Of a stretch of 64,000 bases of DNA, positions 3,478-50,117 are shown in pieces; the first letter of the stretch is position 1, and every line of letters begins with the position of its first letter. The DNA is from Candidatus Limnocylindria bacterium (lineage in GTDB: Bacteria; Patescibacteriota; Saccharimonadia; Saccharimonadales; JAGQNK01): the NCBI GenBank assembly GCA_035489815.1, contig DATHJH010000032.1:32301-96300 (forward strand), given 5' to 3'. The translations under genes were made by a program, and so were the position numbers. The notes under the pieces were generated by a model that was not told where the DNA came from, did not search any database, and worked only from the letters and a program-made list of their open reading frames with translations.

Positions 3478-3580
3478 GCTGAGTGCTGCCGTGGCCCATC
3501 CTGAGGGGTCAGCAAGCGCCTCGGCGGCCAAAGGCCGTCCGTAAAAGCGCTCCTCAGGATGGGCCACGGCAGCACTCAGC
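3478..3580 (+). repeat. family-1 nested hairpin element, copy A (subtype 1a)
   Basis: Perfect 29-nt arms at 3478-3506 and 3552-3580 enclose the core GGTCAGCAAGCGCCTCGGCGGCCAAAGGCCGTCCGTAAAAGCGCT. Confidence 0.9.
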
Positions 3581-3662
3581 AGTCCGTAACCCTGCACCAT
3601 CCGCAATTTATGACTGCGAGTATTCTGTCATAGGTATAATATCCAAGTACTAAGGAGCATGT

Positions 3663-5018
3663 ATGTCAAAAGATTCACTGGCGGAAATATTTAAAGCATA
3701 TGACATCCGCGGCAAGGTCGGATCGCAGCTAACACCGGAAACAGTGGAGCGCATTGGTGCCGTATTCGGCGACTGGTTGCCTACAGAAGGCGTGGTAGCG
3801 GTGGGACATGACATGCGCCCGGACTCTGCCGAACTGGCACAGGCGCTTATCAAGGGCATTACAGTAACTGGCCGGGATGTTATGGATGTTGGCCAGGTGA
3901 CAAGTGACATGAGCTATTTTGCCGTTGGCAAATACAACCTGGCCGGGGCTGCCATGGTCACCGCCAGCCACAACCCGGGTGCCGACAACGGGATAAAACT
4001 CTACCGGGATCAGGTTATCGCTGTGGGCTTGGATGCCGGGTTAGACCAGATCCGCGACAGGGTACTTACAGATTACGCGCCAAAAACCGCCGCACAGCCC
4101 GGTCAAGTCACGGCAAAGGATATTACAGAGGACTGGCTTGCCCATGTTATGAGCTTTGTGCCGGATCCGGCCAAACTCAAGCCGTACAAAATGGCCGTGG
4201 ACGCCGGCAACGGTATGGCAGGTAAAATATTCCCGGAACTTGAACCCTATGTCCCGTTTGAAGTGACCGAACTGTACTTTGACCTGGACGGCACCTTCCC
4301 TAATCATGAGGCCAATCCGCAAAAGCCGGAAAATATGCAGGACCTCATCAAGACAGTCCAGGAAAACAAGCTGGACTTTGGCATTGCCTTTGATGGTGAC
4401 GGTGACCGCGCCGGGTTTGTGGATGACAAGGGCCGGATTGTGTCCGGAAGTGACCTGATCAGCATTGTTGCCCGGGAGTATTTGAAGAAGTACCCTGGGG
4501 CAGAAATAGTGCACGAGGTCCGCACCAGCCGGGCCACCCAGGAACTCGTCCGCGAATGGGGCGGCACACCCTTTAGAACCAAAGCCGGACGGGTCAGCAT
4601 CGGCACTGTCATGCGCGAACACGACGCCCCATTTGGCGGCGAGACAACCGGACACCTGTTTTTTAAGGAAAACTATTACGCCGACTCTGGCCTGATTGGC
4701 GCGATGATGGTCATCGTCGCCCTGCAGGCAGCTGGTAAAAAATTGTCGCAACTGGTGGACGAATACCACAGATATGCCACTATGCCAGAGGTAAATTTTG
4801 AAGTAGCTGATAAGGACGGAGCGTTAAAACGCCTGGCTCAGGCCTTTTCCAACGACACCCAGGATACCCTTGACGGGCTAACGGTGAATTTTGATGACGG
4901 TTGGTTTAATATCCGCGCCAGCAACACCGAACCAGTCATGCGCCTCAACGCCGAGGCCGGGACCCAGGCCCGCCTCGACGAGCTCGTTGCAAAAGTCACA
5001 CACCTAATCCAGGACTAG
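3663..5018 (+). CDS. manB: phosphomannomutase/phosphoglucomutase (alpha-D-phosphohexomutase family)
   Basis: 451 aa. FKAYDIRG N-terminus, catalytic TASHNPGADNG loop, metal-binding FDGDGDR. AAGGAG RBS upstream. Confidence 0.85.
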   Translation: MSKDSLAEIFKAYDIRGKVGSQLTPETVERIGAVFGDWLPTEGVVAVGHDMRPDSAELAQALIKGITVTGRDVMDVGQVTSDMSYFAVGKYNLAGAAMVTASHNPGADNGIKLYRDQVIAVGLDAGLDQIRDRVLTDYAPKTAAQPGQVTAKDITEDWLAHVMSFVPDPAKLKPYKMAVDAGNGMAGKIFPELEPYVPFEVTELYFDLDGTFPNHEANPQKPENMQDLIKTVQENKLDFGIAFDGDGDRAGFVDDKGRIVSGSDLISIVAREYLKKYPGAEIVHEVRTSRATQELVREWGGTPFRTKAGRVSIGTVMREHDAPFGGETTGHLFFKENYYADSGLIGAMMVIVALQAAGKKLSQLVDEYHRYATMPEVNFEVADKDGALKRLAQAFSNDTQDTLDGLTVNFDDGWFNIRASNTEPVMRLNAEAGTQARLDELVAKVTHLIQD

Positions 5019-5037
5019 CGGGATATACTAAACACAT

Positions 5038-6045
5038 ATGAAGATGCTCATTACCGGCGGCGCGGGGTTCATTGGTGCGAACTTTGTCCACTATATCCGC
5101 CAGCACTACCCTGACTATCAGATAATCGTCGTCGATAAACTTAATCAACAGGGTAACTTAGAAAACCTGGCTGCCGTTCGCGATCAGATAGAGTTTCATG
5201 AGTTTGACCTCATCGAAGAAGCCAAGCTGGTGCTTATCTTTGAGCAAGGCCTGGATTATGTCGTCCACTTTGCAGCCGAAACCAACGTAGACCGATCTAT
5301 CGAAGATCCGGACAATTTTGTGAACAGCAATGTGCTTGCCACCAACATCTTGTTGCGCCTCAGCCGTGACCACAAAGTCAAACGCTTCCACCACGTTTCT
5401 ACAGATGAGGTCTTTGGCAGCCTGGAACTCGGATCAGATGATAAGTTCAACGAGCACACCTCTTACGACCCGCGCAGTCCCTACTCTGCTACCAAAGCCG
5501 CCAGCGATCACCTGGTACGGTCCTACTTCCATACCTACGACCTGGATGTCACTATCAGTAACTGCTCCAACAACTACGGCCCTTACCAGGTACCAGAGAA
5601 CATTGTGCCGGTCTTTACCCTCATGGGCCTGCAGGACAAGCCGCTGACTATTTATGGCGACGGCAAAAGCATCCGGGATTACCTGTTTGTGCTGGACCAC
5701 TGCCGGGCCATTGACCTGATTCTGCGCAAAGGCCGTGCCGGTGAAACATACTGCGTCGGCGGTGGCCAGGAACAAAATGGCGTAGAAATCGCCGATGGTG
5801 TGCTCTCCATCCTGGATAAATCCCAGGAGCTGAAAAAGTTCGTGACCGACCGGCCCGGTCACGACCGCCGCTACGCCATTGACTACACCAAAATCAGCCG
5901 CGAACTGGGCTACCAACCAAGCGTGACATTTGAGGAAGGCCTGCGCCAAACCATCGACTGGTACCAGGCCAATACCGAGTGGTGGCAGCCCTACATGGAA
6001 AAGTTTTATGTACCGAAGTTCATGCAAAAGGACGTGGAACAATGA
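5038..6045 (+). CDS. rfbB: dTDP-glucose 4,6-dehydratase
   Basis: 335 aa. GGAGFIGANF Rossmann motif, YSATKAASDHL (YxxxK), full-length SDR-extended architecture. Confidence 0.9.
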   Translation: MKMLITGGAGFIGANFVHYIRQHYPDYQIIVVDKLNQQGNLENLAAVRDQIEFHEFDLIEEAKLVLIFEQGLDYVVHFAAETNVDRSIEDPDNFVNSNVLATNILLRLSRDHKVKRFHHVSTDEVFGSLELGSDDKFNEHTSYDPRSPYSATKAASDHLVRSYFHTYDLDVTISNCSNNYGPYQVPENIVPVFTLMGLQDKPLTIYGDGKSIRDYLFVLDHCRAIDLILRKGRAGETYCVGGGQEQNGVEIADGVLSILDKSQELKKFVTDRPGHDRRYAIDYTKISRELGYQPSVTFEEGLRQTIDWYQANTEWWQPYMEKFYVPKFMQKDVEQ

Positions 6046-6050
6046 GAGGC

Positions 6051-6159
6051 CCGGAACGGCTCACCCTTACGAATTCGTCAGGCTAAAGCTAACGCCATGG
6101 GCTGACCGAAGGTCACCCATAAAGTGGCCTAGAGAATTCGTAAGGGTGAGCCGTTCCGG
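6051..6159 (+). repeat. family-1 nested hairpin element, copy B (subtype 1b)
   Basis: Perfect 26-nt arms at 6051-6076 and 6134-6159. Core is GTCAGGCTAAAGCTAACGCCATGGGCTGACCGAAGGTCACCCATAAAGTGGCCTAGA. Confidence 0.9.
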
Positions 6160-6169
6160 CGGGAAAAAT

Positions 6170-7282
6170 ATGAATATAACCTTCTTTGGAACATACGACA
6201 CCAGCAACACCCCCCGGGTTCAAGCCCTCATTGACGGTATGCGCGCCCATGACCACAAGGTGACAGAATGCAACGCACCGCTCAAGGTCAACACCGCCTC
6301 CCGGGTAGCCATCATGCAACAGCCTTGGCGCTTGCCACTGCTGGGTGGGCACATCCTCCGCTGCTGGGTTCGTCTGATCGGAAAATCGCGACACCTTCCA
6401 CCAACTGATTTGGTGATAGTGGGACACTTGGGGCAGTTCGATATTCAGCTGGCGCATCTGCTGTTTAGAAAAAAACCTATTGCTCTAGACTACATGATCT
6501 CCGGCACCGAAACGGCCAACGACCGCGGGGCTAAAGGCGGACTCAAGACAAAAGTCCTCGGCTGGCTGGACCAGGCAGCCCTCAAAAAATCCGCCATTAT
6601 CATAGTAGATACTGAAGAACACCGCCTAGACCTACCCGGGCACCACCGATCCAAGGGTGTAGTCGTAAACGTCGGCGCCCCGCCCTCCTGGTTTGAGGCG
6701 GGCGAGGCAGAGGCCAAACGCAAAGTAACCAAACCCATTAGCATCGCCTTTTTCGGCAACTACATCCCCCTGCAGGGCGCCCCAATCATTGCCGAGGCCA
6801 CCCGCTCTATGCAATCTCCCGTCACCATAACCATGGTCGGCCCCCACGGCCAGGACTTTGCCAAAGCCCAGGCCGCCGCTCGGCCTGCCAAAGGCCCAGC
6901 CACCATCAAGTGGGTCGACCATTGGGTGCCCATAGACGAACTGCCCGCACTTATGGCTCAGCACGATGTGTGCCTGGGTGTCTTTGGTACCAGCCCCAAA
7001 ACTTATAAAGTCGTACCTAACAAAGTCTACCAGTGCGCCGCTGCCGGCGGTGCCATTGTGACCTCCGACACGCCGTCACAGCGGCGGGTCTTTGGCGCGT
7101 CCGCCATCTACACACCCCCCGGCGACGCCCACGCCCTGGCCGACGCCCTGGACAAACTGGCCAACAACCCCAAAGAAGTGCAACGCCTCCGCGCAGCCGC
7201 TTTCACCCTCGCCAAAAAATCCTTCCGCCCCGAACAAATCATCCGCCCCTTCCTCAAAAAACTCGAAGAACAAGGTCTATGA
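6170..7282 (+). CDS. glycosyltransferase (GT-B, GT1/GT4-like)
   Basis: The ORF-track frame opens at 5930, but that extension overlaps rfbB and the hairpin element. The ATG at 6170 (MNITFFGTYD) is the first start after the element. The C-terminal half is GT-B-like. Confidence 0.6.
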   Translation: MNITFFGTYDTSNTPRVQALIDGMRAHDHKVTECNAPLKVNTASRVAIMQQPWRLPLLGGHILRCWVRLIGKSRHLPPTDLVIVGHLGQFDIQLAHLLFRKKPIALDYMISGTETANDRGAKGGLKTKVLGWLDQAALKKSAIIIVDTEEHRLDLPGHHRSKGVVVNVGAPPSWFEAGEAEAKRKVTKPISIAFFGNYIPLQGAPIIAEATRSMQSPVTITMVGPHGQDFAKAQAAARPAKGPATIKWVDHWVPIDELPALMAQHDVCLGVFGTSPKTYKVVPNKVYQCAAAGGAIVTSDTPSQRRVFGASAIYTPPGDAHALADALDKLANNPKEVQRLRAAAFTLAKKSFRPEQIIRPFLKKLEEQGL

Positions 7283-7818
7283 GACAACTCGATCAACAAA
7301 AGTTCTGCGGCTGGTGTGGCGGCATGGTAACTTACCCTTCAAAATGGCAATCAGTCTGTAGCACATGCGGATACAAGCAATACCAAAACCCTTTACCATG
7401 CAGCAGCGCTCTTATTATCTGTGGCGATGAAGTACTAATACTCCAGCGGTCTATAGAACCAGGAAAGGGGAAGTTTGACCTCCCGGGCGGTTTTATGGAC
7501 ATGACAGACAAGTCCATAGAGGCAGCCGCTTACCGAGAACTGCACGAAGAATTGGGAATAAAACAGCGTATGATAACCCAGGTTACTTATTTTGGATCGG
7601 GCATACAGCCATACGAGTGGCAAGGAACAGAGCTACTCACAGCGCCCTGTTACTTTACCTGCCACATAACCACCAAGGACCGCGCCCGGCTTGTCGTTGA
7701 CCCCAAAGAGGGCTCTCAGGTACGCTGGGTAAGTCGGGCCGACGTACCGACCGTAGACTTTGCCTTTGATTTGGATAAGGAAATGCTTACCAGTTATTTT
7801 AGTAATAAAACACCTTAG
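7279..7818 (+). CDS. NUDIX hydrolase with N-terminal zinc ribbon
   Basis: Nudix box GGFMDMTDKSIEAAAYRELHEELGI. CGWCGG...CSTCG Cys4 ribbon. The start ATG overlaps the upstream stop (ATGA). Confidence 0.8.
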   Translation: MRQLDQQKFCGWCGGMVTYPSKWQSVCSTCGYKQYQNPLPCSSALIICGDEVLILQRSIEPGKGKFDLPGGFMDMTDKSIEAAAYRELHEELGIKQRMITQVTYFGSGIQPYEWQGTELLTAPCYFTCHITTKDRARLVVDPKEGSQVRWVSRADVPTVDFAFDLDKEMLTSYFSNKTP

Positions 7819-7830
7819 GAGGGTTATAGC

Positions 7831-8406
7831 GTGCAGCTTATAAAGACGGACATCGACGGAGTATTACAGGCTCAGCCAGACATACACGGTGACGAGCGCG
7901 GTTTTTTCATAGAAACCTACCGGCGGCAGTGGTTTCCAAATGGACGGGAAATGATCCAGGGCAACCGCGGCGACCGTAAAGCTGGCTCCATTGTGGGCTT
8001 TCACTATCACCTGCACCAAGCAGATTACTGGTACGTTCCCTTTGGCTCCGCCCGCGTCATCCTGCATGATTTTCGCAAGGACTCACCAACGTTTGGCGTG
8101 ACAGCCACCTTTGACCTTGGCGCAGACCTGAAAAGTCCGGATGATCCAAAAAAGTTCAATCACAATGGCCTCTACATCCCGCCCGGGGTAGCCCATGGCT
8201 TTGCTGCATTGTCCGACATGACTATCACCTACCTCGTGGACGGCTACTATAATCCAGCAGATGAACTAGGCATTGCCTGGAACGATCCCGATGTTGGAGC
8301 CGATTGGGGATTGAAAGATCCCGTCGCATCTGACCGCGACAAAAAGAATCCATTGCGCAAAGATATTCCGATTGAGCTAAGACCGCACTTTAAACTCCGG
8401 GGGTAA
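7831..8406 (+). CDS. rfbC: dTDP-4-dehydrorhamnose 3,5-epimerase
   Basis: 191 aa, GTG start. GDERGFFIETY, FHYH...QADYWYV, cupin-type RmlC pattern. Confidence 0.85.
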   Translation: MQLIKTDIDGVLQAQPDIHGDERGFFIETYRRQWFPNGREMIQGNRGDRKAGSIVGFHYHLHQADYWYVPFGSARVILHDFRKDSPTFGVTATFDLGADLKSPDDPKKFNHNGLYIPPGVAHGFAALSDMTITYLVDGYYNPADELGIAWNDPDVGADWGLKDPVASDRDKKNPLRKDIPIELRPHFKLRG

Positions 8407-8409
8407 ATC

Positions 8410-10133: not shown

Positions 10134-10157
10134 GCCCGCCTCCAAACGATCTCGGAC

Positions 10158-10263
10158 CCCATCACAAATACCCTCTTATTCCGTCAGGGTCAGCAAGCGC
10201 CTCCGAGGGCCCATGGCCCGAGGTAAAAGCGCCCTAGAGGAATAAGAGGGTATTTGTGATGGG
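10158..10263 (+). repeat. family-1 nested hairpin element, copy C (subtype 1a)
   Basis: Perfect 25-nt arms at 10158-10182 and 10239-10263. Core is GTCAGGGTCAGCAAGCGCCTCCGAGGGCCCATGGCCCGAGGTAAAAGCGCCCTAGA. Confidence 0.9.
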
Positions 10264-10289
10264 CCGATGCCTAGTAATAGTCATAACCG

Positions 10290-16321: not shown

Positions 16322-18883
16322 ATGAAATACACCCTAGTCCCCCATCTCCCATACCTTGACAGGTCTGCCCTCCCAGAAGCAGTGCCAAACAGCCCGGCTG
16401 CCCTGAAACGTAGCTATGGCTACGTTTCAGGCACATCCAATCTGCCTGGCACTGCTTCTGGAAAGGCATCTAGCCGTCAGAGTATGGGAGATGGGGGACT
16501 AGGCAAACAGCAAGTAAAAAAGCGACTCGTGCCCACCATTGCTGCTGTTTTTGTCCTTGGTATCCTACTCCCGGCTGTTCTGCCCTCCCAGAACACAGAT
16601 GCGCTGAGCGGTTCGCAGTTTAATGCCGGACGAATCATCGATGATGCGGTGTTCTACAACAAAAACTCTATGTCCGCCAGCCAGATCCAAAGCTTCCTAA
16701 ACAGTAAGGTCCCGACTTGTGAAACCCACCATGCCAAATCTTCCAGCAGTAACGATTCCGGGCCGCCGTATAAATGCCTCAAGGACTATCGTCAAAATAC
16801 CGCCAACATTGCTCCGGACAGCGGCCTGTGTGGCGGCTACACCGGCAGAAGCAACGAAACAGCCGCCCAGATCATCTACCACGTCGCCCAAAGCTGCGGC
16901 ATAAGCCCTAAGGTCATACTGGTCATGCTCCAAAAAGAGCAAGGGCTGGTAACCGATACATGGCCATGGGACATTCAATACCGAAAGGCCATGGGCGCTT
17001 TCTGCCCGGACTCCGCCCCGTGCGATCCGGCTTATGCTGGATTCTTTTACCAGGTATACTACGGTGCTCATCGGTTCAAGGTCTATGCCGCCAACCCGGG
17101 TAGTTTCAACTACCGGGCCGGCCGCAATAACTCCATCCTCTGGAATCCCAAGACATCCTGCGGAAGGTCAACTGTGTACATCCAGAACCAGGCAACCGCC
17201 AGCCTCTACATTTATACCCCGTACCGCCCCAACCAGGCCGCCCTCAATAACCTGGGCGGCACCGGAGACAGCTGCAGCTCCTACGGCAATCGCAACTTCT
17301 GGGTATTCTATAACCAGTGGTTTGGCCCCACCACCGGCAGCCCCCTGTTCAAATTCAGTAATGACGCAACGGTGTATGTACTCGGCGCAAACAACAACTA
17401 CTACCGTATGGAAAATCGTGAAAAACTGGATATATACGGGTTCGGCGACACCATACATAGCGTCAAGACCGTCAGTACCAGCTATGTCTCCGGCCGGAGC
17501 TTTTCAGGCAACCTGCCGCTTATCGCCCGGTTCCAGGGAGATGAGGTCTACATGATTAGTGGCGGCCGGGCTCATCACTTTACCTCCCGGGCGCTGTTAC
17601 AGACATTTGGCTACGACATTGGCCAGGAAGCCCTGCTGCCGGCCGGCATTAAAGAATGGTACCCGGACGCCGAAGCCATGCAAACCACCGTTCGCAGCGC
17701 TAACGGCCCCGCTGTCTGGTCTGTCGAAGGCGGCAAGAAGCGGCACATCATCAATGGCGAGGCCTACCTTTCCGGCAGCCCCGCGTATGCGTCAAGGCCT
17801 GAGGTCACCTTATGGGAAGCCGTTATGGCGCCGATCGAAAACGGCCCGCCGATTCTGACGGCCAACAAGCTGTTAAAACGGACCGACCAAAACACTTACA
17901 TTTTCTGGGATGGCACCAAACGGCAGGAAATTTCTGCCAGAGTGGCCGCAGAGCTGCATCTGCCCCTCATCTATGCCACCAGAGCCTCCATACTCAACCA
18001 GTTACCCGCCGGGGGCACAGACATAGACAAGTATGTAAAAAACGGCGGCGGCGAGCTGTATGTCCTGGACTCGGGCCAAAAGTTCCTTGTGTCGCCCTCT
18101 GACCTCACCCAAATGGGACTTACCTCATCTTCATTCTCACTCGCCCCGGACGGATTCTTTGACTTTGTCCCCACTACTAAAGCTTTTAAACGGCTATTCA
18201 GAATTGGGAGCGACAGCGGCGTCTTCTTAATCAAAAGCGGGCAGCGCTATCACCTCATGAGCCCGGCCGCTGTTTCAGAAAGCGGCTTTGCACTGTCAGA
18301 CGCCATATCCCTGAACGACACATCAGCAAACCTGTTCCCTAATTCCGGAAAAAAGATTATGGCCAAGGGTACATTGTTCAGGATCGGCTCCAGGGATGAG
18401 GTGTTTGTAGTAAACACCGGCTCGTCCAGCCTGCACATTGTGTCTGCCCCTACCCTGAAGGACTACGGCCTGAAAATTGCCAGTACCTTCAGCCTCAACC
18501 CCACCCAGGCATCCGACTACCCAATGTCCGGAAAGCTCCGGCACATTGTGAAAGACGGCTCAAACAACGTCTGGCAGGTACAGAACGGCGCAGAGAAACG
18601 GCCCGTACCCACGCCCATGCAAGACCCCGGCGGCTATAACGTCATTGTTCCGGAATTAGCCGTTCTGGATACCAGCCTCTTTGGCGGATATGCCACTCAA
18701 TCAGACCTGACCAACCTCATACGCGCAGCGGGTGATGCCCGTGTATACAAGGTCGAAAACGGCAAAAAGCACTGGGTAACCAGTCGGGCCGTTTTTGACA
18801 CCAACGGGTTTTCACTCAGTAACGTCACGAACGTCTCCACAGGGTTCCTGAACAGCCTTGCCAGCGGTCCGAACATACACTAG
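16322..18883 (+). CDS. large exported cell-wall-associated protein: putative murein-hydrolase-like N-domain plus about 9 degenerate ~55-aa repeats
   Basis: 853-aa maximal ORF. A more likely start is the ATG at 16484 (MGDGGLGKQQVKKRL + TM), because codons 4-61 are the hairpin element. It carries the motif AAQIIYHVAQSCGISPKVILVMLQKEQGLV. The C-terminal repeats follow the pattern hYhh..G.+h.h.s...h...Gh. Confidence 0.7.
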   Translation: MKYTLVPHLPYLDRSALPEAVPNSPAALKRSYGYVSGTSNLPGTASGKASSRQSMGDGGLGKQQVKKRLVPTIAAVFVLGILLPAVLPSQNTDALSGSQFNAGRIIDDAVFYNKNSMSASQIQSFLNSKVPTCETHHAKSSSSNDSGPPYKCLKDYRQNTANIAPDSGLCGGYTGRSNETAAQIIYHVAQSCGISPKVILVMLQKEQGLVTDTWPWDIQYRKAMGAFCPDSAPCDPAYAGFFYQVYYGAHRFKVYAANPGSFNYRAGRNNSILWNPKTSCGRSTVYIQNQATASLYIYTPYRPNQAALNNLGGTGDSCSSYGNRNFWVFYNQWFGPTTGSPLFKFSNDATVYVLGANNNYYRMENREKLDIYGFGDTIHSVKTVSTSYVSGRSFSGNLPLIARFQGDEVYMISGGRAHHFTSRALLQTFGYDIGQEALLPAGIKEWYPDAEAMQTTVRSANGPAVWSVEGGKKRHIINGEAYLSGSPAYASRPEVTLWEAVMAPIENGPPILTANKLLKRTDQNTYIFWDGTKRQEISARVAAELHLPLIYATRASILNQLPAGGTDIDKYVKNGGGELYVLDSGQKFLVSPSDLTQMGLTSSSFSLAPDGFFDFVPTTKAFKRLFRIGSDSGVFLIKSGQRYHLMSPAAVSESGFALSDAISLNDTSANLFPNSGKKIMAKGTLFRIGSRDEVFVVNTGSSSLHIVSAPTLKDYGLKIASTFSLNPTQASDYPMSGKLRHIVKDGSNNVWQVQNGAEKRPVPTPMQDPGGYNVIVPELAVLDTSLFGGYATQSDLTNLIRAAGDARVYKVENGKKHWVTSRAVFDTNGFSLSNVTNVSTGFLNSLASGPNIH
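16333..16503. repeat. 171-nt triple-nested perfect hairpin element (E)
   Basis: Outer arms are 22/22 perfect (16333-16354 and 16482-16503). The middle stem is 14/14 (16373-16386 and 16448-16461). The inner stem is 12-13 bp (16403-16414 and 16419-16430) with loop TATG. Confidence 0.9.
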
Positions 18884-18899: not shown

Positions 18900-19006
18900 G
18901 GCCGAGTCAGCTACTTTCGTTCCTCTAGGGCGCTTTATGGGCGATCCTTACGGATCGGCCCATGGCGCTTGCTTACCCGGACGGAACGAAAATAACTGGC
19001 TCGGCC
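18900..19006 (-). repeat. family-1 nested hairpin element, copy F (subtype 1b, core on minus strand)
   Basis: 24-nt arms at 18900-18923 and 18983-19006 with 21 WC pairs. The minus-strand core is GTCCGGGTAAGCAAGCGCCATGGGCCGATCCGTAAGGATCGCCCATAAAGCGCCCTAGA. Confidence 0.9.
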
Positions 19007-21925: not shown

Positions 21926-22095
21926 GCTGTGGAGTAGGATAGCATAAACCTGTGCCACTGATGGCACGTGGATCAGAGCGCACACAGGTAGGCAGCGCCA
22001 TGAGTCAGCCTAGGACTGCTCATAGCGCCAAACCACTGCTGATGGGTCAGTGATAGCCTTTATAGTCCAGGTATAAATATAGTAGAGTACCTGTA

Positions 22096-24974: not shown

Positions 24975-25022
24975 AAACTGTACTTTTATTTTGTCCGGCC
25001 GGATATAAATGGAGTACAGTTT
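24975..25022. promoter_or_regulatory. imperfect 48-bp palindrome (candidate operator) upstream of the PaaX/Cas2-fold gene
   Basis: AAACTGTACT-N-GTCCGGCCGGAT-N-AGTACAGTTT. It shares its ends and its centre with the perfect palindrome at 25545-25598. Confidence 0.6.
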
Positions 25023-25033: not shown

Positions 25034-25549
25034 ATGAAAAGAAGCAGGAGCACCAAAGATTTACCAAACTCAGCCCTGGCCTATGTACTGGAGGCCTTGA
25101 TCCCTTACTCTGATGCGAACGTAAAGCTAGCTTTCAAGCCGCACCTATTCTTTAACGACCTTGAGAACATTGCCCGGCAAAAGCAAAGCCTCAGCTACCG
25201 TCGTCAAACTTTACGGAATGCTTTTTACCACGCCAAGCGTAGTGGATTTATTGAGTTTAGTAAGTCTGGTGGCCCACGCCTTACGCGCAAAGGGGAAGCG
25301 TACTTAAAGCCCTATGAGCCAAGCAAGCTTGGCGACTCCGCACGACTCATGGTTATATTTGATATCCCGGAAGAACAGCGAGCCAAGCGTCGCTACCTAA
25401 GGCTCATACTTAGACAGTTAAAATTCAAAATGGTTCAGCAAAGTGTTTGGATAAGTAAGTACGATTGCAAAACGATTCTTCATGATGAGATCGAAGCGTA
25501 TGAGCTGCAGGCTTATGTTCAAATATACGAGTGCGTTCGATTATTATAA
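25034..25549 (+). CDS. PaaX-like / Cas2-fold domain DNA-binding protein
   Basis: 171 aa. The C-terminal RLMVIFDIPEEQRAKRRYLRLILRQLKFKMVQQSVWISKYD matches the ferredoxin-like Cas2/PaaX-middle-domain pattern. The N-terminal half is wHTH-like. Confidence 0.6.
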   Translation: MKRSRSTKDLPNSALAYVLEALIPYSDANVKLAFKPHLFFNDLENIARQKQSLSYRRQTLRNAFYHAKRSGFIEFSKSGGPRLTRKGEAYLKPYEPSKLGDSARLMVIFDIPEEQRAKRRYLRLILRQLKFKMVQQSVWISKYDCKTILHDEIEAYELQAYVQIYECVRLL

Positions 25550-25598
25550 CTGTACTCTAAAAATGTCCGGCCGGACATTTTTAGAGTACAGTTATAAG
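25545..25598. terminator. perfect 54-bp palindrome; candidate bidirectional intrinsic terminator and/or operator
   Basis: 27/27 perfect arms centred on GTCCGG|CCGGAC, flanked by A5/T5 runs. It contains the stop codon of the ORF at 25034-25549 and lies between convergent genes. Confidence 0.7.
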
Positions 25599-31681: not shown

Positions 31682-31782
31682 GCCGGCACCGACCACTCGC
31701 CCCCCTAGGGCGCTTTTACGAATTGCCTAACGGCGATTCGAGGCGCTTGCTGACCCTAGGGGGCCAAGCAGTCGGTGCCGGC
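31682..31782 (-). repeat. family-1 nested hairpin element, copy I (subtype 1a, core on minus strand)
   Basis: 26-nt arms at 31682-31707 and 31757-31782 with 22 WC pairs. The minus-strand core is GGGTCAGCAAGCGCCTCGAATCGCCGTTAGGCAATTCGTAAAAGCGCCC. Confidence 0.9.
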
Positions 31783-31796
31783 TGGCCCGTGGAGTT

Positions 31797-31960
31797 AGAA
31801 CCTGCTCATGATCTCGCTCCTGATGCCAAAACTGATCCATTTCGAGTGGCAATTCGTTCTAGTTTTCCTGCTGTACCCATAGGTACGGCAGGGGGATTAG
31901 GGCGGATTGACGCCGGAATGGGCGGCTTTGGGACAGGATTTGAGATCATGAACAGGTTCT
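31797..31960. repeat. 164-nt nested hairpin element (J)
   Basis: 19-nt arms at 31797-31815 and 31942-31960 with 18/19 paired. An inner 11-bp stem lies at 31867-31877 and 31883-31893. Confidence 0.8.
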
Positions 31961-31976
31961 CAGAAAGGCCCTGCTC

Positions 31977-35462: not shown

Positions 35463-37226
35463 ATGTGCGGTATCTTTGGCCACACACAACCCGGCAAGAA
35501 CCCGACCGCCTCACGGCGTGCTTTGAACACTTTAGCCCACCGCGGGCCAGACCAATGGAACGACTGGCAGGACAAGGAAGTGTATGTGGGCCACCGGCGG
35601 CTCAGCATTATCGATCTGTCTGAACATGGGCGGCAGCCTATGTCTGCCCAGGGCGTTGTTATAACGGTGAATGGGGAAATCTATAATTACAAAACCCTCA
35701 AAAAAGAACTGGGGAACAAGTACGCCTACCAAAGTGATTCTGACTCAGAAGTCCTCATCTACGGCTATCTGGAATGGGGCATGGACAAGCTTCTGGAAAA
35801 ATTAGAAGGTATGTATGCTTTTGTGCTGTACGACACCAGGCAGAGGAAACTCTTTTTGGGCCGGGACCGGGCGGGCATCAAACCCTTGTACTATTCGCAT
35901 AAGGGCGGCCAAATAGCCTGGGCCTCAGAGCTCAAAGCCCTTACCAGTTTCCATACCGAGGCAAAGCTGGAGGTTGACTCCACGGCCGTCTACGACTACC
36001 TGACCTACCGGTACATCCCCACCCCAAAAACGCTCTACAAGGACGTATACAAACTGCCGCCGGCGCAGTACCTGGAACTGGACCTGCACACGCACAAGCT
36101 CCAGAAAAAACAGTATTGGACACTCGGGCTTGTCAAAATCAACCCAACCCTGGACGAGGCCGCCGCCAAAGTCAGGGAACTGGTCGACCAAGCCGTCCAG
36201 GAACAGCTGATGAGCGACGTCCCAGTGGGCTTTTTCCTGAGCGGCGGCATGGACTCCAGCACCGTCGTAGGCATAGCCGCCCAGCACAGCAAACAGCTAA
36301 ACACCTACGCCATCGGTTTTGATATAAAAGAGCACGACGAAACCCACTTTGCCGAACTGGTAGCCAAAAAGTTTAAGACCAATCACCGGCGCAAGGTCGT
36401 GTCTGTGGGTGAGGTCAAAAAACTCTTCCCCAAAATCAAAGACTGGTACGACGAGCCTTTTGCTGACACCTCCACCTTCCCGGTTTACATAGTGTCCAAG
36501 CTCACCAAGCCCAGTTCAACAGTGGTGTTGACCGGCGACGGCGGAGACGAAGTCTTTGGCGGCTACAACTGGTACGCCGACTTCAAAAAAAATGCCCCTG
36601 GTTTTATCAAAGAGAACTACCCCGGCTCCCGACTAAAAAGAAAACTCACCCGGTCCCACCAGGCAACCATCACCAACCTGGAGTTCGCCTACTACACCAA
36701 ACTCATGGGCGGCCTGACCCGGGAAGAAAAGGCCGGCTACCGCAAACAATTCGGTATAGCTGACTCCTACGATGACTATTGGTATTTTAGAAAATTCTAC
36801 CGGCCAGAACTGCCCCTCTATACCCGCCTGCAATACCTGGACTTTCACACCTATCTGCATGACGACATCTTAACCAAAGTCGACCGGGCCAGCATGGCCG
36901 TAGCCCTGGAGTGCCGGGTACCACTGCTGTCCACCCCCCTCATCGAGTACCTGTTTTCTCTGCCGGAAAATATTCGCTATCACAACGGTGAGCTTAAGGG
37001 ACTTATGAAATACGCCTTCCACGACCTGCTGCCGGATGAAATCCTAAACCGCAAAAAAAAAGGCTTCAGCATCCCCACCGGCCGCTGGCAGCCAAACCTG
37101 ATGGAGCGGGACACCACCGTACCAGAGTTCATCCTCAAAAAGTTTTTCAATAATACCACGGGTCGGTCCAAAACGGCTGCCCCTTCACAGCACAAAAGGC
37201 TTCAGCATAGCCGGCGTAATTTTTGA
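35463..37226 (+). CDS. asnB: asparagine synthase (glutamine-hydrolysing) family amidotransferase (WbpS-like context)
   Basis: 587 aa. MCGIFG N-terminal nucleophile, PP-loop FLSGGMDSS. The last ~20 codons overlap hairpin element K. Confidence 0.85.
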   Translation: MCGIFGHTQPGKNPTASRRALNTLAHRGPDQWNDWQDKEVYVGHRRLSIIDLSEHGRQPMSAQGVVITVNGEIYNYKTLKKELGNKYAYQSDSDSEVLIYGYLEWGMDKLLEKLEGMYAFVLYDTRQRKLFLGRDRAGIKPLYYSHKGGQIAWASELKALTSFHTEAKLEVDSTAVYDYLTYRYIPTPKTLYKDVYKLPPAQYLELDLHTHKLQKKQYWTLGLVKINPTLDEAAAKVRELVDQAVQEQLMSDVPVGFFLSGGMDSSTVVGIAAQHSKQLNTYAIGFDIKEHDETHFAELVAKKFKTNHRRKVVSVGEVKKLFPKIKDWYDEPFADTSTFPVYIVSKLTKPSSTVVLTGDGGDEVFGGYNWYADFKKNAPGFIKENYPGSRLKRKLTRSHQATITNLEFAYYTKLMGGLTREEKAGYRKQFGIADSYDDYWYFRKFYRPELPLYTRLQYLDFHTYLHDDILTKVDRASMAVALECRVPLLSTPLIEYLFSLPENIRYHNGELKGLMKYAFHDLLPDEILNRKKKGFSIPTGRWQPNLMERDTTVPEFILKKFFNNTTGRSKTAAPSQHKRLQHSRRNF

Positions 37227-37291
37227 CCTCGTGGCCAAAATTACCCGCGCGAAGCGGTCTTCTGGGTGGGAAGGGGCAGCTGTTTTGGACC
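37165..37291. repeat. 127-nt hairpin element (K) straddling the asnB stop codon
   Basis: 22-nt arms at 37165-37186 and 37270-37291. 21/22 are WC pairs and one is G:T. Confidence 0.8.
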
Positions 37292-42716: not shown

Positions 42717-42772
42717 TATTTAACGGTACTAACAAAAAAGTTCGTCGTCCGTAATAATTTTCACATCCAACC

Positions 42773-42853
42773 TATAGACATCACACTCTGTCCTGCCACC
42801 AGAGTTGCCTGAGGGCAGGCAAGTCGGGACAGGGTCAGGGTGTGATGTCTATA
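42773..42853. repeat. 81-nt nested hairpin element (L)
   Basis: Perfect 14-nt arms at 42773-42786 and 42840-42853. Inner pairings are CTGTCC/GGACAG and CTGCC/GGCAG. Confidence 0.75.
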
Positions 42854-42869
42854 AAGCCACCCTAAAAAG

Positions 42870-44320: not shown

Positions 44321-44422
44321 GTTTTCTCCCTCAGGTTATACCCATAATACCAAACTAACGCCTGTACGGCAGGGTGTTAAACAAAAAGCGAACACTTATA
44401 TATCCCGAAAGTATCCCCAAAA

Positions 44423-44767: not shown

Positions 44768-44876
44768 GCTATGGAAACCGTCTACTGCCCTTCCCGGTTT
44801 TTTTAATATTTGACATGAGCCAAAAAAAGTTTTACAAATGTTTAAAAGTGCTTTGTATTCTGAAGTATAAAACTGT

Positions 44877-45014
44877 TCAGGCAGATATCTTCTTGCGGCC
44901 CTTGATGCGGCGGCGCTGTAAAACCGCCCGCCCTGCCTTGCTGGCCATGCGCTTCATAAAGCCATGCTGTCGGGCACGCTTGCGGGTCTTCGGCTGATAA
45001 GTTCTTTTTGGCAT
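44877..45014 (-). CDS. rpmH: 50S ribosomal protein L34
   Basis: Translated manually (under 60 aa, so absent from the ORF track): [49 protein letters not shown] lies upstream. Confidence 0.9.
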
Positions 45015-45254
45015 TTTCTTCTCCTTAATGCTCTATTGTAATCAAGCTTTCAACTGTTGCCTAGGTCTCACACCTGGACGCCGGGGTGTATTCTTGCCGG
45101 GAAACGGACCGGACCGTATTTAATGAGGTACGGTAAGGAGTATCCCGGATAAAAATCGCGCCGGGCGGCGGTGAGGACAGCGTGCGGGGGCCCAGGGTGT
45201 TTTTAACAATGGTTATTCGCTTATATTAGCAACTTTTCCCCATTTTTTCAACTA

Positions 45255-45360
45255 TTTTCCACAGATATTACAGAGGTGGTCTTTAGATGTGTACAAGTCT
45301 GCCCCTGTTCCTGAAAAATTATAGGGGTTCCTTCTTATTCCAAACACAGGTTGTGGAAAA
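45255..45360. promoter_or_regulatory. pair of inverted DnaA-box-like 9-mers upstream of dnaA
   Basis: TTTTCCACA at 45255-45263 and its reverse complement TGTGGAAAA at 45352-45360. Each has one mismatch to TTATCCACA. Confidence 0.6.
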
Positions 45361-45415
45361 GTGATATATTTGTTGGTAGACTCTTAGAACAGATTCTGGA
45401 AGGAGTACGGAGGGT

Positions 45416-46798
45416 ATGCAAGACAGCCTGTGGCAAGCAGTACTGGGGGAGATAGAGCTGACGGTTTCCCGGGGTCATTACGTCACGTGGTTTAAAAATA
45501 CCCGGCTGCTCCGCCATCAGAACGACACGCTCGTCATAGGCGTTCAGAATGTCTTTGTAAAACAACAACTGGAACGCAAGTTCAATCAGCTCATAACCGA
45601 TACTTTAGAAAAAAACGGTGTAAAGCCGGAACACATCGAATACAAGATAGACTCTGGTATGGCTCAATCCCGAAAGGCAGATGATGAACTTTCCGGGACC
45701 ACCGTGCTCAGGAATCCTGAAAAAAGGTCTGTCGTCCAGGCAGCCGGCAAGTCCAGCCGTACCACGCTCACCCACACTTACCGCCAGGGACTGAATACGA
45801 AATATACCTTCGACAGTTTCATAGTTGGCTCCGGCAACGAACTGGCTTATGCTGCCTGCCAGGCTATCGCTCAAAATCCGGGCAGCAAGTATAATCCCCT
45901 CTTTGTCTACGGCGGCGTTGGTATTGGCAAAACACACCTCATTCAGGCCGCGGGCAACGCCGTTATCGCCAGGAATCCTGCTGCTCATGTCGTCTATGTT
46001 TCCACGGAACAGTTTGTGCAGGAGTTTCTGGATGCTATCCGGTACAAGAAAAATACCGATTTTGCCGGCTTTTACCGGAGCGCCGATGTGCTGATTATCG
46101 ACGATATGCAGTTTATCGCCGGTAAGGAAAAGACGCAGGAAGAATTCTTTCACACCTTTAATGCCCTTCACCAGGCCAACAAACAGATCATTATCAGCAG
46201 TGACAAGCCGCCGAAAGACATCCCCACCCTGGAGGAACGGCTGCGCAGCCGGTTTGCCTGGGGCATGAGTATAGATATGCAGATCCCGGACTTTGAGACG
46301 CGCTGTGCTATTGTCCAGACCAAGGCCCACGAGCACGCCACTACCCTGCCCCCGCCAGTGGTAGAGTTCCTGGCTAACCTCATCCAGACCAATATCCGTG
46401 AACTGGAAGGCGCCCTGAACCAACTGCTGGCTTTTTGTGAAATGAGGGGGCTGGAACCCGAACTTACCTTAGCCACCAGCCTGTTGGGCACCAGCAAAAC
46501 CCGGCCCAAGCATTTAAGTGCCAAGCAGATTATTGAACGAACCGCCAAGCACTTCCAGATCCCCCTGGAGGAAATGCTGGGCCCAAAAAGAGACAAAGAC
46601 ATCGTCGTACCCCGCCAGGTGGCTATGTATATGCTGCGGAGCGAACTACACCTGAGCTTCCCAAAAATCGCCCGGGAACTGGGCCGCAAGGACCACACTA
46701 CCGCCATTCATTCCGTCGAAAAAATCACCAGGGAATCCGGCCTGGACCCGGTTATAAAAGCCGCCATCACCGAAATCAAGGAGCGTCTCTATGCTTAG
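45416..46798 (+). CDS. dnaA: chromosomal replication initiator protein DnaA
   Basis: 460 aa. Walker A GGVGIGKTHL, DDMQFIAGKE, C-terminal DNA-binding KDHTTAIHS. Confidence 0.95.
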   Translation: MQDSLWQAVLGEIELTVSRGHYVTWFKNTRLLRHQNDTLVIGVQNVFVKQQLERKFNQLITDTLEKNGVKPEHIEYKIDSGMAQSRKADDELSGTTVLRNPEKRSVVQAAGKSSRTTLTHTYRQGLNTKYTFDSFIVGSGNELAYAACQAIAQNPGSKYNPLFVYGGVGIGKTHLIQAAGNAVIARNPAAHVVYVSTEQFVQEFLDAIRYKKNTDFAGFYRSADVLIIDDMQFIAGKEKTQEEFFHTFNALHQANKQIIISSDKPPKDIPTLEERLRSRFAWGMSIDMQIPDFETRCAIVQTKAHEHATTLPPPVVEFLANLIQTNIRELEGALNQLLAFCEMRGLEPELTLATSLLGTSKTRPKHLSAKQIIERTAKHFQIPLEEMLGPKRDKDIVVPRQVAMYMLRSELHLSFPKIARELGRKDHTTAIHSVEKITRESGLDPVIKAAITEIKERLYA

Positions 46799-47135
46799 AA
46801 TTAGCACTGACCCACAAACCCTGCCCGGAGGAATTTCCGGCTGTCAGTCAGGTACCATGAGTGCTAAAAATCTGTGGGAAATTTGTGCACAAGCTGTGCA
46901 GAGGCTGTGGGTTGGACTGGGACAAAACCGGCACCTTACACACAGGCGGCTGGCGGCTGGCGGGACACTGTGGGAAAAACCGGGATTTTTGCACGGGTTG
47001 TACCACTTTTGTACTCAGGATTTGCCCACATATTTTTATACCTTTACGCCTCTGTTGTTAGGACAATTGTCCACCCCGTCCACAGGCCCTACTAAAACTA
47101 CTACTATATATAATAAGTAATTAAGGAGTATAGGA
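46799..47135. other. candidate oriC (dnaA-dnaN spacer with DnaA-box cluster and AT-rich unwinding segment)
   Basis: TGTGGGAAA occurs at 46873-46881 and 46969-46977. Weaker boxes lie at about 46906, 47022-47030 (TTGCCCACA), 47067-47075 and 47078-47084. An AT-rich run sits at about 47096-47125. Confidence 0.65.
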
Positions 47136-48227
47136 ATGAAACTGCAAGTCACCCAGGAAAACCTCACCCGAGCCCTAAACAATGTCAGCCGGGTAGCTAA
47201 TACACGCGGCACCCTGCCCATTCTGGCGAACGTCCTGCTCAAGACCGTGGGTAATCGCCTCAGTATCGCTGCCACCAACCTGGATATTGCCATCACTCAT
47301 TACATTGGCTCCAAAGTCGGTGAAGAAGGCTCTATAACCGTCCCTGCCCGGTTGATGCAGGATTTTGTAAGCAGCCTGCCGAGCGGTGTCATAGACCTCA
47401 AGCTGGATGATTACAAGCTCAACATCAGTACTGACAAATACCAGTCGGTTATTAACGGCATTTCGGCCGAGGACTATCCGGTTATGCCAGCTATAGCTGA
47501 CGGCAAAAGCTGGAAAATAGCCGGCAAAACTCTCAAGGCCGGTCTACAGCAGGTGGTTATGGCGGCGTCAAACGATGAAGCCCGACCAGTTCTGACCGGG
47601 GTGTACCTTCACAGTCACGAAGGAGACCTGTATATGGTGGCCACAGACAGTTACCGCCTGGCCGAGAAGAAGCTTATGAAGTCCACTGACGAGGTGCAGC
47701 TTCTCATACCGGCTACCGCCCTCCAGGATTTGCTGCGTATTCTGGGCGAGTATGAGGGTGATGTGAATGTGACGCATGATGACCAGCAGGTGCTGTTCAA
47801 GGTGGGCGACATCGAGTTAGTTACCCGACTTATCGAGGGCAGTTACCCTGATTACCGCAAACTCATTCCGTCCAATTTTGCCTCCAGCGCCAAGCTGAAG
47901 CGGGCTGACCTCACAAACATTACCAAGGTGTCCAGCCTGTTCGCCCGTGAAAGTGCCGGCAGTGTGACTATCCACCTGGACGGTGAAAAATCCCAGGTGA
48001 GCATCCGCTCAGTCGCCTCGCAGTTAGGAGAGAACACATCTGCGGCGACAGCCGAGGTCACAGGCGACGGCATAATAACCCTTAATTCACGGTATATTCT
48101 GGATGCCCTGCATGCTCTCAGCGGCGAGGATGTCACCTTCTCTTTTAACGACAAACTGGAACCAACCGTCCTGGCCGACCCAAAGGCTGGCGACTATCTG
48201 CATGTCATTATGCCGCTCAAGTCGTAA
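47136..48227 (+). CDS. dnaN: DNA polymerase III beta sliding clamp
   Basis: 363 aa with a typical N-terminus (MKLQVTQENLTRAL...LPILANVLL) and three-domain length. Confidence 0.95.
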   Translation: MKLQVTQENLTRALNNVSRVANTRGTLPILANVLLKTVGNRLSIAATNLDIAITHYIGSKVGEEGSITVPARLMQDFVSSLPSGVIDLKLDDYKLNISTDKYQSVINGISAEDYPVMPAIADGKSWKIAGKTLKAGLQQVVMAASNDEARPVLTGVYLHSHEGDLYMVATDSYRLAEKKLMKSTDEVQLLIPATALQDLLRILGEYEGDVNVTHDDQQVLFKVGDIELVTRLIEGSYPDYRKLIPSNFASSAKLKRADLTNITKVSSLFARESAGSVTIHLDGEKSQVSIRSVASQLGENTSAATAEVTGDGIITLNSRYILDALHALSGEDVTFSFNDKLEPTVLADPKAGDYLHVIMPLKS

Positions 48228-48645
48228 ACGGATTTTTGACAGTTAGACCACCATACTTACGTCCATCTTGTAAATCCTCGCTATAGAGAATGGCGCAGTT
48301 GAGATCTATAGCAGCTTGTACAATAAGTGCATCGTAAAAACTGAGAGAGTGCCCAGCGTGAAGGGCGACAGCACTGTTATAAAAGTAAATATCCGGAGTG
48401 TGTTTTAAGAGCCTCCTCATAAAAGTATTGAGTATACTTTCAAGATCAAGATCCAGGGTGGTTTTTTTAAATTTCCCGGTAGCAATATTGCAAAACTCTT
48501 GAACCACCTGTGAACTGATGCAGCCCCGGCCGGACCGCAGTGCATCCCGGATAAGCGTGTTGGCCGTGCTTTGCTTAACCTTATCCCGAGGGTCTAGCGC
48601 ATAAATGAGAATGTTTGTATCTAGAAAATAGCTCTGTTTTGGCAA
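48217..48645 (-). CDS. PIN-domain toxin (VapC-like)
   Basis: 142 aa. YFLDTNILIYAL (Asp1), SFYDALIVQAA, ILYSEDLQ acidic residues. Confidence 0.8.
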   Translation of the reverse strand: MPKQSYFLDTNILIYALDPRDKVKQSTANTLIRDALRSGRGCISSQVVQEFCNIATGKFKKTTLDLDLESILNTFMRRLLKHTPDIYFYNSAVALHAGHSLSFYDALIVQAAIDLNCAILYSEDLQDGRKYGGLTVKNPFTT

Positions 48646-48647
48646 GT

Positions 48648-48866
48648 CTATCTCTCGTTCATTTCTTCTCTGGTAAATTTACGTCCTGGCTGGACGTAGC
48701 TTAGTCGCTTCATAAGTTCATTGTATTCCCTGACGGCTCGTTCTCGATCTGTGTATTGTTTGAGCCACTCACGAAAAAGGTTGTTAAGCGTAGTATTCTG
48801 GGAACGCGCTCGTTCTCTGGCAGCTTCAATAAGCTTTTCATCGGCAGAAAGAGTAATGTTTTTCAT
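48648..48866 (-). CDS. ribbon-helix-helix antitoxin (VapB/CopG-like)
   Basis: 72 aa. MKNITLSADEKLIEAARERA beta-strand-helix pattern. It lies 2 nt upstream of the PIN gene. Confidence 0.7.
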   Translation of the reverse strand: MKNITLSADEKLIEAARERARSQNTTLNNLFREWLKQYTDRERAVREYNELMKRLSYVQPGRKFTREEMNER

Positions 48867-48935
48867 ACGACAATAGTGTACACAGCTATAGTGCTACCGT
48901 CAATAAAGCTTCTCTCTATCGTATACTGGTAACAC

Positions 48936-49997
48936 ATGTTGGACTCAGTGAGATTACAGAGGTTTCGGTCGTACCGGGACGAGTCTTTTGAATTTGACCC
49001 CGGGGTGAATATTATCGTCGGGCCGAATGCCAGCGGCAAGACAAATCTGCTGGAGGCGCTCCTTGTCAGCTACACGGGCGGTTCCTTTCGGGCTAAGGAT
49101 GGAGAGCTGGTGGCTTTTGGAGCGCCCTGGGCGCGGCTGGATGTCCTGGGGCCTGGTGGCGGTCGTACAGTAAAACTGCTCGTGCAGGAAAACGGGTTGG
49201 TAAAGAAAGAGTTTGTCATTGGGGATCAAAAGCTTGTGCGCTTGAGTTTGCAGAAGTCGCTGCCGGTAGTGTTGTTTGAGCCGAATCACCTGCTTCTGCT
49301 GCACGGCTCACCCGATCTCAGGCGTGAGTATATGGACGCTCTGCTGGAGCAGACCGTGGCGGGGTATGGGAAGATCCGGCGGGATTATCGCCGGGCTTTG
49401 GCTCAGCGTAATGCGCTCTTAAAACGTGGTGCATCCGCCCGGGGTCAGCTATTTGCCTGGGACATCCGGCTGAGCGAGATTGGTGCGCGTATTGCAAGCG
49501 AGCGTAATGCTCTTGTGCGGCGAATGAACGGACAGTTAGGGTTGCTCTACCACTCCATGGCCCGTTCTCGTGCCAATACAGTGACTGTTACATATGCAGC
49601 CAGCTGTGACATCACCCAGTACAGCTCAAGCCTGCTACACGCCCTGGAAAAGCGCCAGGACGTGGATATTGAACGTGGATACACTACAATCGGACCGCAT
49701 CGTGAGGATTTGGTCGTGGCTTTTGACGGGCGGGAGGCGTCGCAGGTTGCTTCCCGCGGAGAGACGCGTACCATATTGTTGGCCCTCAAGGTCATGGAGC
49801 TACAGTTCATAGAGGAGGCCCGCGGCACTCAACCGATCCTCCTCCTGGATGACGTCTTCAGCGAACTGGACGGTGCCCGCCGCCGGGCCCTGACAGAAGT
49901 CATCAGCGGCTACCAAACCTTTATAACCACCACCGACGCGGACGTCGTGGTCCAGCATTTTATGAATAAGTGCCGGATCATTCCTCTCGGCGGCTAG
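48936..49997 (+). CDS. recF: DNA replication and repair protein RecF
   Basis: 353 aa. Walker A GPNASGKTNLLEAL, signature/Walker B LLLDDVFSELD. Confidence 0.95.
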   Translation: MLDSVRLQRFRSYRDESFEFDPGVNIIVGPNASGKTNLLEALLVSYTGGSFRAKDGELVAFGAPWARLDVLGPGGGRTVKLLVQENGLVKKEFVIGDQKLVRLSLQKSLPVVLFEPNHLLLLHGSPDLRREYMDALLEQTVAGYGKIRRDYRRALAQRNALLKRGASARGQLFAWDIRLSEIGARIASERNALVRRMNGQLGLLYHSMARSRANTVTVTYAASCDITQYSSSLLHALEKRQDVDIERGYTTIGPHREDLVVAFDGREASQVASRGETRTILLALKVMELQFIEEARGTQPILLLDDVFSELDGARRRALTEVISGYQTFITTTDADVVVQHFMNKCRIIPLGG

Positions 49998-50011
49998 CCG
50001 TGCAGGAGTTT

Positions 50012-50117
50012 GCCACACATGCTACCTGCTGAATCTCTAGGCCGCTTTATAGGTGGCCTTACGGCCAGCCTATGGCGCTAGCTTTAGCCTGACGATTCAG
50101 CAGGTAGCATGTGTGGC
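50012..50117 (-). repeat. family-1 nested hairpin element, copy M (subtype 1b, core on minus strand)
   Basis: Perfect 24-nt arms at 50012-50035 and 50094-50117. The minus-strand core is GTCAGGCTAAAGCTAGCGCCATAGGCTGGCCGTAAGGCCACCTATAAAGCGGCCTAGA. Confidence 0.9.

Follow-up and report, generated by a model that had tools for sequence, protein, structure and literature searches.

Six nested hairpin elements were found between the genes of a 64,000-nt stretch (hereafter the window) of the genome assembly GCA_035489815.1, contig DATHJH010000032.1, positions 32,301 to 96,300. The public record labels this metagenome-assembled genome (MAG) Limnocylindria, and all of its relatives are Saccharimonadales. 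Each element consists of an asymmetric core of 45-59 nt within perfect or near-perfect arms of 24-29 bp, and all six were read where a sequence-only reading of the same DNA had placed them (Table 1). Two copies lie between divergent, two between convergent and two between co-directional genes, with the core on the forward strand in c1-c3 and on the reverse strand in c4-c6; the orientation of the element is random relative to the genes. We lean towards regarding them as members of a repeat family, so far undescribed, in chromosomes of Saccharimonadia (TM7, candidate phyla radiation or CPR). The family would consist of small palindromic DNA elements of about 105-130 bp that are non-coding and nearest in kind to miniature inverted-repeat transposable elements (MITEs) and REPINs. 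The surrounding genes include a surface-polysaccharide locus of about 42 kb (window 1-42000; rmlABCD, many glycosyltransferases, Wzy, Wzm/Wzt and methyltransferases) and a type IV secretion-like cluster (window 50000-60000; VirB4/TraG-like, PrgI, lysozyme and VanY-like proteins). The window also holds rnpA-dnaA-dnaN-recF and a GC-skew minimum, and it thus includes the replication origin region.

Table 1. The six hairpin elements of the window, with their arms, covariance model (CM) scores and neighbouring genes (ORF, open reading frame; GT, glycosyltransferase).
Copy	Position	Strand	Subfamily and core	Arms	Arms by repeat finder	CM score (bits)	Setting
c1	3478..3580	+	B; core 3507-3551	3478-3506 / 3552-3580, 29 bp, 100% complementary		89.3	divergent genes, 505-aa ORF (-) and phosphoglucomutase (+)
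c2	6051..6159	+	C; GTCAGGCTAAAGCTAACGCC...AAAGTGGCCTAGAG	26 bp, perfect	6051-6083 / 6127-6159, 33 nt, 91% complementary	109.8	begins 5 nt past rmlB stop, ends 10 nt ahead of next GT start
c3	10158..10263	+	B	25 bp, perfect	10158-10189 / 10232-10263, 32 nt, 91% complementary	100.9	convergent rmlA (+) and GT2 gene (-)
c4	18900..19006	-	A; GTCCGGGTAAGCAAGCGCC	24 bp, 3 transition mismatches		111.5	+ strand genes on either side, core antisense to both
c5	31682..31792	-	B; 5' tail CCACGGGC at 31785-31792	31682-31710 / 31754-31782, 29 nt, 86%, 4 mismatches		81.3	divergent wzm-like ABC-2 (-) and TPR/GT protein (+); 13 nt from distinct hairpin element 31795-31963
c6	50012..50117	-	C	24 bp, perfect	50012-50042 / 50087-50117, 31 nt, 90% complementary	114.3	convergent recF (+) and 526-aa ORF (-)

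Five of the six copies are the longest interrupted inverted repeats that the repeat finder returned for the window. The sequence-only reading had proposed a dispersed family, and a covariance model built from 17 copies bore this out: the six had scores of 81-114 bits, with E from 1e-16 to 1e-24, and scanning the window with the model revealed no seventh full copy. The half-core patterns were also found far above chance in the window. When up to three mismatches were allowed, GTCAGGGTMAGCAAGCGCC gave 3 matches against 0.03 expected, and TAAAGCGCCCTAGAG gave 6 against 1.6 expected, a number reached in none of 100 shuffles. An armless and weakly core-like segment, either a relic or a chance match, was noticed at 21987-22029 (GGTAGGCAGCGCC-ATGAGTCAGCC...CTCAT-AGCGCC; model positions 41-87, E 0.45).

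Together with 17 copies from Saccharimonadia loci of metagenomes or MAGs, the family comprised 23 distinct copies (the comparison contigs and loci are numbered L001-L034). A 22-base split pattern retrieved one true copy among the GTDB species representatives, in a Candidatus Saccharibacteria MAG, and ten in JGI metagenome contigs, while six further copies came from loci around homologous proteins. The close relatives identified by the RmlB and RecF of the window were all named Candidatus Saccharimonadales or Saccharimonadia. The family patterns had no match in IMG/VR, and one whole copy had none in phage or plasmid collections. No named motif had been recognised from the sequence, and Rfam agreed, with 0 gathering-level matches in the window; in the literature on repeats, invertons and structured RNAs of Saccharibacteria/Patescibacteria we found nothing on this hairpin family.

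The consensus of the core is GTCAGG-GT(C/A)AGCAAGCGCC-(variable hairpin P3)-(T)AAAGCGC-CCTAGAG. Three subfamilies were distinguished, A (GTAAGC...), B (GTCAGC...TC) and C (CTAAAGCTA...), all of which recur across genomes and all of which occur in the window. RNAalifold and the covariance model concur on one fold, composed of a long outer helix, an imperfect junction, a 5' bulge of 9 single-stranded nt carrying AAGC(A/T)AG, a P2 of 2-3 bp, and P3, a hairpin of 9-12 bp with a conserved 1-nt bulge. The junction GTCAGG/CCTAGAG contains fixed mismatches: it reads C-G, G opposite A, U-G, C opposite A, A-U, three G-C pairs and a closing invariant U-G; in c1 the variant CCTGAGG/CCTCAGG is paired throughout. 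In 19 of the 23 copies the inner hairpin has the tetranucleotide CGTC, with unpaired bases, at its foot. Across the 23 copies and the 40-pair structure, standard pairs filled 95.2% of 914 cells, compared with 63.8% after shuffling and 33-42% when partners were slid. Double changes were seen at 35 of the 40 pairs, and the covariation score was 0.824 against 0.20. The fold is real and is kept by compensatory change.

At least five copies of the three subfamilies also carry a 5' tail, (T)TACC-ACNGGC, at a fixed distance of 33-34 nt from the junction. Many arm tips resemble pieces of a P3 strand, and AAA(G) is frequent as the 3' flank; with these tips, this flank and the core-like tail, the whole hairpin resembles a giant P3.

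The sequence-only reading had suggested that the long helix only needs to pair, and changes on both sides were indeed found at 26 of its 29 pairs. In the variable part of the arms, the 525 pairs of the 23 copies were divided into 486 Watson-Crick, 17 G-T, 10 A-C and 12 transversion mismatches, and the arms were fully Watson-Crick in 14 copies. Between paralogous loci, similarity is limited to the central 60-82 nt. The arms had been called unrelated between copies, which is correct for the six window copies. Elsewhere it fails: copies at one orthologous site have kept related arm sequence, and tips of 4-6 bp (often GCTGA...TCAGC or GGCC...GGCC) together with about 10 bp of the inner arm recur within lineages. 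The related claim, that the family reverses the logic of MITEs, was for the same reason overstated, although the outer arms in the window are unrelated as it said. We also considered the arms as spacers or guides and rejected this, as arm 12-mers recur in 246 kb of sequence at about the estimated chance rate; two arm 20-mers had no exact match in IMG/VR.

The history of one element could be followed at the site between polA and a conserved gene of 311-316 aa, which is occupied in L012, L028, L029/L030, L031 and L032/L033. The protein beside the L012 element and its relative on contig L028 are 98% identical. Between these two contigs the flanks are identical at 249 of 250 positions and the 19-bp outer arms are the same, and the central 70 nt, which cover the inner arms with a 1-nt bulge and the entire core, are exact reverse complements. 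Over the wider set the core has orientation - in L012 and L029 and + in L028, L031 and L032. The segment between the arms thus appears to invert between near-identical strains. In L029/L030, L031 and L032/L033 the flanking protein is only 67-76% identical, yet the element occupies the same site, and it can therefore stay at one locus across species.

The cores of these orthologues are 85-90% identical. The arms of L012 and L031 agree at 21 of 26 and 20 of 24 positions (about 80%), and since the two arms within each genome are still complementary, the changes have been mirrored. In the farther orthologues arm identity declines to the paralogue background of about 0.6-0.7, to which the conserved inner 11 bp or so give rise. 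In L034 (GCA_964478195.1) a scaffold gap of 100 N (~8052-8151) lies at the expected place of the element and starts a few bases into the arm; apparently such hairpin repeats break MAG assemblies.

Occupied and empty sites indicate how copies may arise. L032/L033 contain a second, partly decayed copy (L032b) just downstream of the 311-aa gene. The equivalent site is only 5-18 nt long in L031, L012 and L029 and about 45 nt in the closer relative L034, and arm sequence is lacking in all four; in L034 neither a palindrome nor either arm of L032b is present. In L011 (12687-12814) both arms are bordered directly, on their outer side, by a perfect direct repeat of 9 bp, CCTTGAGAG, and L001 has a possible direct repeat of 7-8 bp, which is offset. 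Short pieces of the 3' arm (TGTGGGGTG, GGGAGAAG) recur in the downstream flank of the L011 copy as well. Perfect palindromes standing empty (stem >=10, loop <=12) are rare, with only 2 in 64 kb. Taken together, the arm-free empty site, the L011 repeat and the rarity of empty palindromes suggest that the hairpin arrives whole; the unit of presence or absence between relatives is the entire hairpin with its arms. Turnover is indicated at the site between rmlB and the glycosyltransferase gene, which is occupied in the window by a copy of subfamily C and in the nearest relative by one of subfamily A whose arms are unrelated. No element stands at the sites of c1, c3 and c6 in the nearest relative (L025 for c6), where the intergenic DNA is too diverged to align.

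We think, on balance, that joint evolution of the two arms within a copy accounts best for the arm pattern, which does not call for a new insertion logic. The element would be MITE/REPIN-like, long-lived and inserting whole. Recombination, for which a RecA-independent form between inverted repeats is known, or polymerase template switching between the closely spaced arms might repeatedly flip the core, and the same process might copy changes from one arm to the other, so that the arms would stay complementary while their sequence drifts freely. The core would be under selection, most likely as a module that a trans-acting protein recognises when the DNA is folded as a single strand or forms a cruciform. 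With a constrained core and concerted drift of the arms, old paralogues would come to share the core and not the arms, which then look locus-specific. For the core itself, a protein-recognised DNA hairpin is the reading we prefer, and a phase switch or an RNA role has the lower probability.

Several observations weigh against this explanation. Only one of the 23 copies shows a target-site duplication, and apart from the possible offset repeat in L001 none was seen in the others. No transposase, recombinase or HUH gene was detected by Pfam among about 50 ORFs of the window, which also has no Y1 transposase. Core and arm do not always agree within the family: L012 and L019 are identical at 58 of 60 core positions with unrelated mid-arms, and L032a and L032b share an identical P3 with, again, unrelated mid-arms; the cores of L015, L016 and L020 are closely related, with identical P3, and their arms are not. 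Such a mismatch within a genome implies gene conversion of cores or replacement of arms, either being possible. The inversion is known from assemblies, in which one pair of near-identical strains shows it and the more distant orthologues differ in orientation. On one strand only, the junction has two U-G (T-G) pairs that never vary, as well as fixed oppositions of G to A and of C to A, and these are compatible with RNA too. Finally, the 5' tail CC-ACNGGC repeats the core's own segment GCGCC-ACGGGC, a feature outside this explanation.

The inversion at the polA site could also mean that the elements are miniature invertons, in which flipping of the core switches the neighbouring genes, here mostly for surface polysaccharide, through an orientation-dependent protein site or signal. 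Near-identical strains that differ by inversion and both orientations at one conserved locus are what such a switch would produce; the genes flanking this locus are divergent, conserved -10-like boxes are found to both sides of it, and the core keeps 87-90% identity over a divergence at which the flanking protein has 67-76%. The 100-N gap in L034 would fit mixed orientations in a population, although this is only a hint. Five of the six window copies fall in the polysaccharide locus, but that locus makes up two thirds of the window, so there is no enrichment, and c3 and c6 lie between convergent gene ends. The scan revealed no sigma-70-like promoter or terminator in any copy, with no consensus promoter or terminator in c1-c4, and no invertase gene is nearby among the window ORFs. 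A site-specific invertase would have no common site except the junction, since the arms differ by locus, and a protein-mediated inversion would have to form its synapse across a spacer of 45-70 bp, which is very short. We consider a phase-variable switch unlikely. Among its possibilities the sequence-only reading had listed a structured RNA whose helix only must pair. Such an RNA would come from a transcribed sense strand and might be recognised by RNase III or another protein, stabilise an mRNA or be the precursor of a small RNA. The covariation-supported fold including P3, the conserved single-stranded bulge with the two invariant U-G pairs on one strand, and the frequent purine-rich P3 loops (GAA, AAA, GUAA) are as expected of an RNA, and c2 and its L022 counterpart both stand within the rmlB-GT operon in the sense direction. 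However, an RNA-only helix would be expected to tolerate many G-U pairs on one strand, and these were not seen: the variable helices of 23-29 bp are nearly wobble-free, with G-U not in excess over A-C, which disfavours a purely RNA role. An early excess of wobble on the core-sense strand (5 of 6) had faded to 17 against 10 at 23 copies and was dropped. Sense and antisense strands fold with equal energy under RNA or DNA parameters, c4 is antisense to both neighbours, and the polA-locus element stands upstream of both divergent -10-like boxes and in both orientations. Rfam at E <=10 returned for c3, c4 and c6 only long-hairpin miRNA models far below threshold and no relative, and promoter or terminator signals were lacking, all of which makes this role improbable in our judgement. 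A likeness to twister ribozymes, suggested by UAAAAG and AAGC, was likewise discarded, with no Rfam match at gathering level or at E <=10. The elements had also been said not to be intrinsic terminators, and this stands: there is no T-tract, the scan placed no terminator-like site over any copy, and two copies lie between divergent gene starts.

The other two suggestions, a core homing into the loops of pre-existing palindromes and a process making inverted duplications of the flank, share the idea of a small mobile core that gains new arms at each insertion, in the latter case from about 25 nt of flank. Related cores with identical P3 and unrelated mid-arms or whole arms (L012/L019/L005 and L015/L016/L020) would be natural products of such a core. 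A stretch within the 3' arm of c2, AATTC-GTAAGGGTGAGC, matches the left junction of another subfamily at 17 of 18 positions in mirrored form, as if local DNA had been copied across, and the many arm tips and the 5' tail that look like P3 pieces might mean that elements sat in older hairpins. Evidence against homing comes from the scarcity of unoccupied long palindromes in the window and from the L034 site, which is empty without being a palindrome; evidence against flank duplication comes from the same site, which lacks the L032 arms, and from the direct repeat of L011, which lies outside both arms. Moreover, the arms are stable and common to orthologous copies, and the rest of the window shows no enrichment of the flank motif CCACNGGC, which had been tried as a target shared by the copies. 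We find a mobile core more doubtful than either the switch or the RNA. With little confidence, we might speculate further that CPR bacteria have in this family a new class of element, a functional hairpin switch or one recognised as a single strand, with a conserved 59-nt core read by a protein (recombinase, HUH enzyme or regulator), flipping appreciably within populations and varying surface-polysaccharide and other loci, the nested P3-like ends then reflecting self-targeted insertion. If true, this would be a compact way for the streamlined Saccharimonadia to vary expression of such loci.

Other hairpins were observed in the same DNA. A second family occurs in the window (42773-42853) and in the nearest relative (L022, 6047-6222); its tips TATAGACAWCACAC...GTGTGATGYCTATA are conserved and its interiors differ, in the manner of classical MITE-like terminal repeats. 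The element next to c5 (31795-31963) belongs to a third long-hairpin family with a member in L011 (10694-10875), 74% identical over 182 nt, and its arms, AGAACC-(8 nt that covary)-ATCTC, show variability in the middle of the stem as in the main family. A 170-nt three-tier hairpin at 16333-16503 (arms of 28, 27 and 13 bp) stands at the longest-ORF start (16322) of an 853-aa gene; its outer arms begin with CCTAG and meet GTCAGAG, short motifs of the main-family junction. At 37165-37291, across the junction of asparagine synthase and epimerase genes, there is a 25-nt inverted repeat, 92% complementary and 77 nt apart, with a weak covariance-model match (E 0.11). Two related palindromes at 24975-25022 and 25544-25597, one of them a perfect 54-mer, have the common centre GTCCGGCCGGAC and bracket the small gene 25034-25549, whose product has a PaaX-central/Cas2-like domain; the palindromes might serve as operators or as bidirectional terminators.

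Saccharimonadia genomes are about 1 Mb in size, and to our knowledge few mobile elements and few regulators have been described in this class. A structured repeat that is conserved across genera, stable at its locus across species and flipping gives a handle on genome dynamics, namely inverted-repeat recombination or template switching, in an uncultured group, as well as on assembly breaks in MAGs and possibly on phase variation. It may also be a natural example in which concerted evolution of hairpin arms mimics locus-specific termini in a repeat family.

Among the known systems, REPs tagged with CGTC (Di Nocera et al. 2013, PMC3733652) share the tetranucleotide, which stands here at the junction, and they also form a class without a dedicated transposase. 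Their stems of 8-9 bp starting with A-T pairs, loops of 4-5 nt and CCA tail (PMC3733652) are rules of which none fits this core, and with no Y1 transposase in the window the family could not be placed among REP/REPIN-RAYT systems. Integron attC sites and the ends of IS200/IS605 are similar in that structure is kept while the stem varies and that the hairpin owes its asymmetry to fixed bases that are unpaired or bulged. Unlike attC, the elements here have no R/L boxes (RYYYAAC / GTTRRRY), no cassette array and no integrase or Y1 transposase; they are scattered in both orientations among housekeeping and polysaccharide genes, and their centre is conserved, whereas attC centres are variable. Invertons such as those of hsdS (PMC7672463) resemble them as intergenic segments flanked by inverted repeats, present in both orientations (here in L012/L028 and among the five orthologues) and beside surface-structure genes. 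The segment here differs in being only 45-70 bp, with no invertase nearby, with repeats that are not common to loci, and with no promoter or orientation-dependent promoter or coding change detected in the scan of c1-c4.

The closest resemblance is to MITEs and to REPINs, which are REP doublets that fold into hairpins (Bertels and Rainey 2011, PMC3116915). Both are likewise short, non-coding, multi-copy and intergenic, and their whole unit is a long hairpin. Six copies in 64 kb, the absence of L032b from four orthologous sites and the coexistence of subfamilies in one genome all agree with such elements, and the single copy with a 9-bp flanking repeat would also fit. In contrast to them, the asymmetric centre is here the best conserved part, the arms of a lineage have only their tips and inner ends in common, and the six window copies lack conserved terminal inverted repeats; the window yielded no transposase or RAYT associated with the family, and its copies are old and mutually divergent, with no recent burst. 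As for the process acting on the arms, template switching between short inverted repeats is reported to homogenise the arms and to invert the spacer (PMC8604942). It is described there as a mutational process at arbitrary repeats, whereas we see only its products, and in a conserved dispersed family, so that the link is one we infer. Both outcomes are found in these elements, perfectly matched arms that change in parallel and an exact inversion of the spacer between strains that are otherwise identical.

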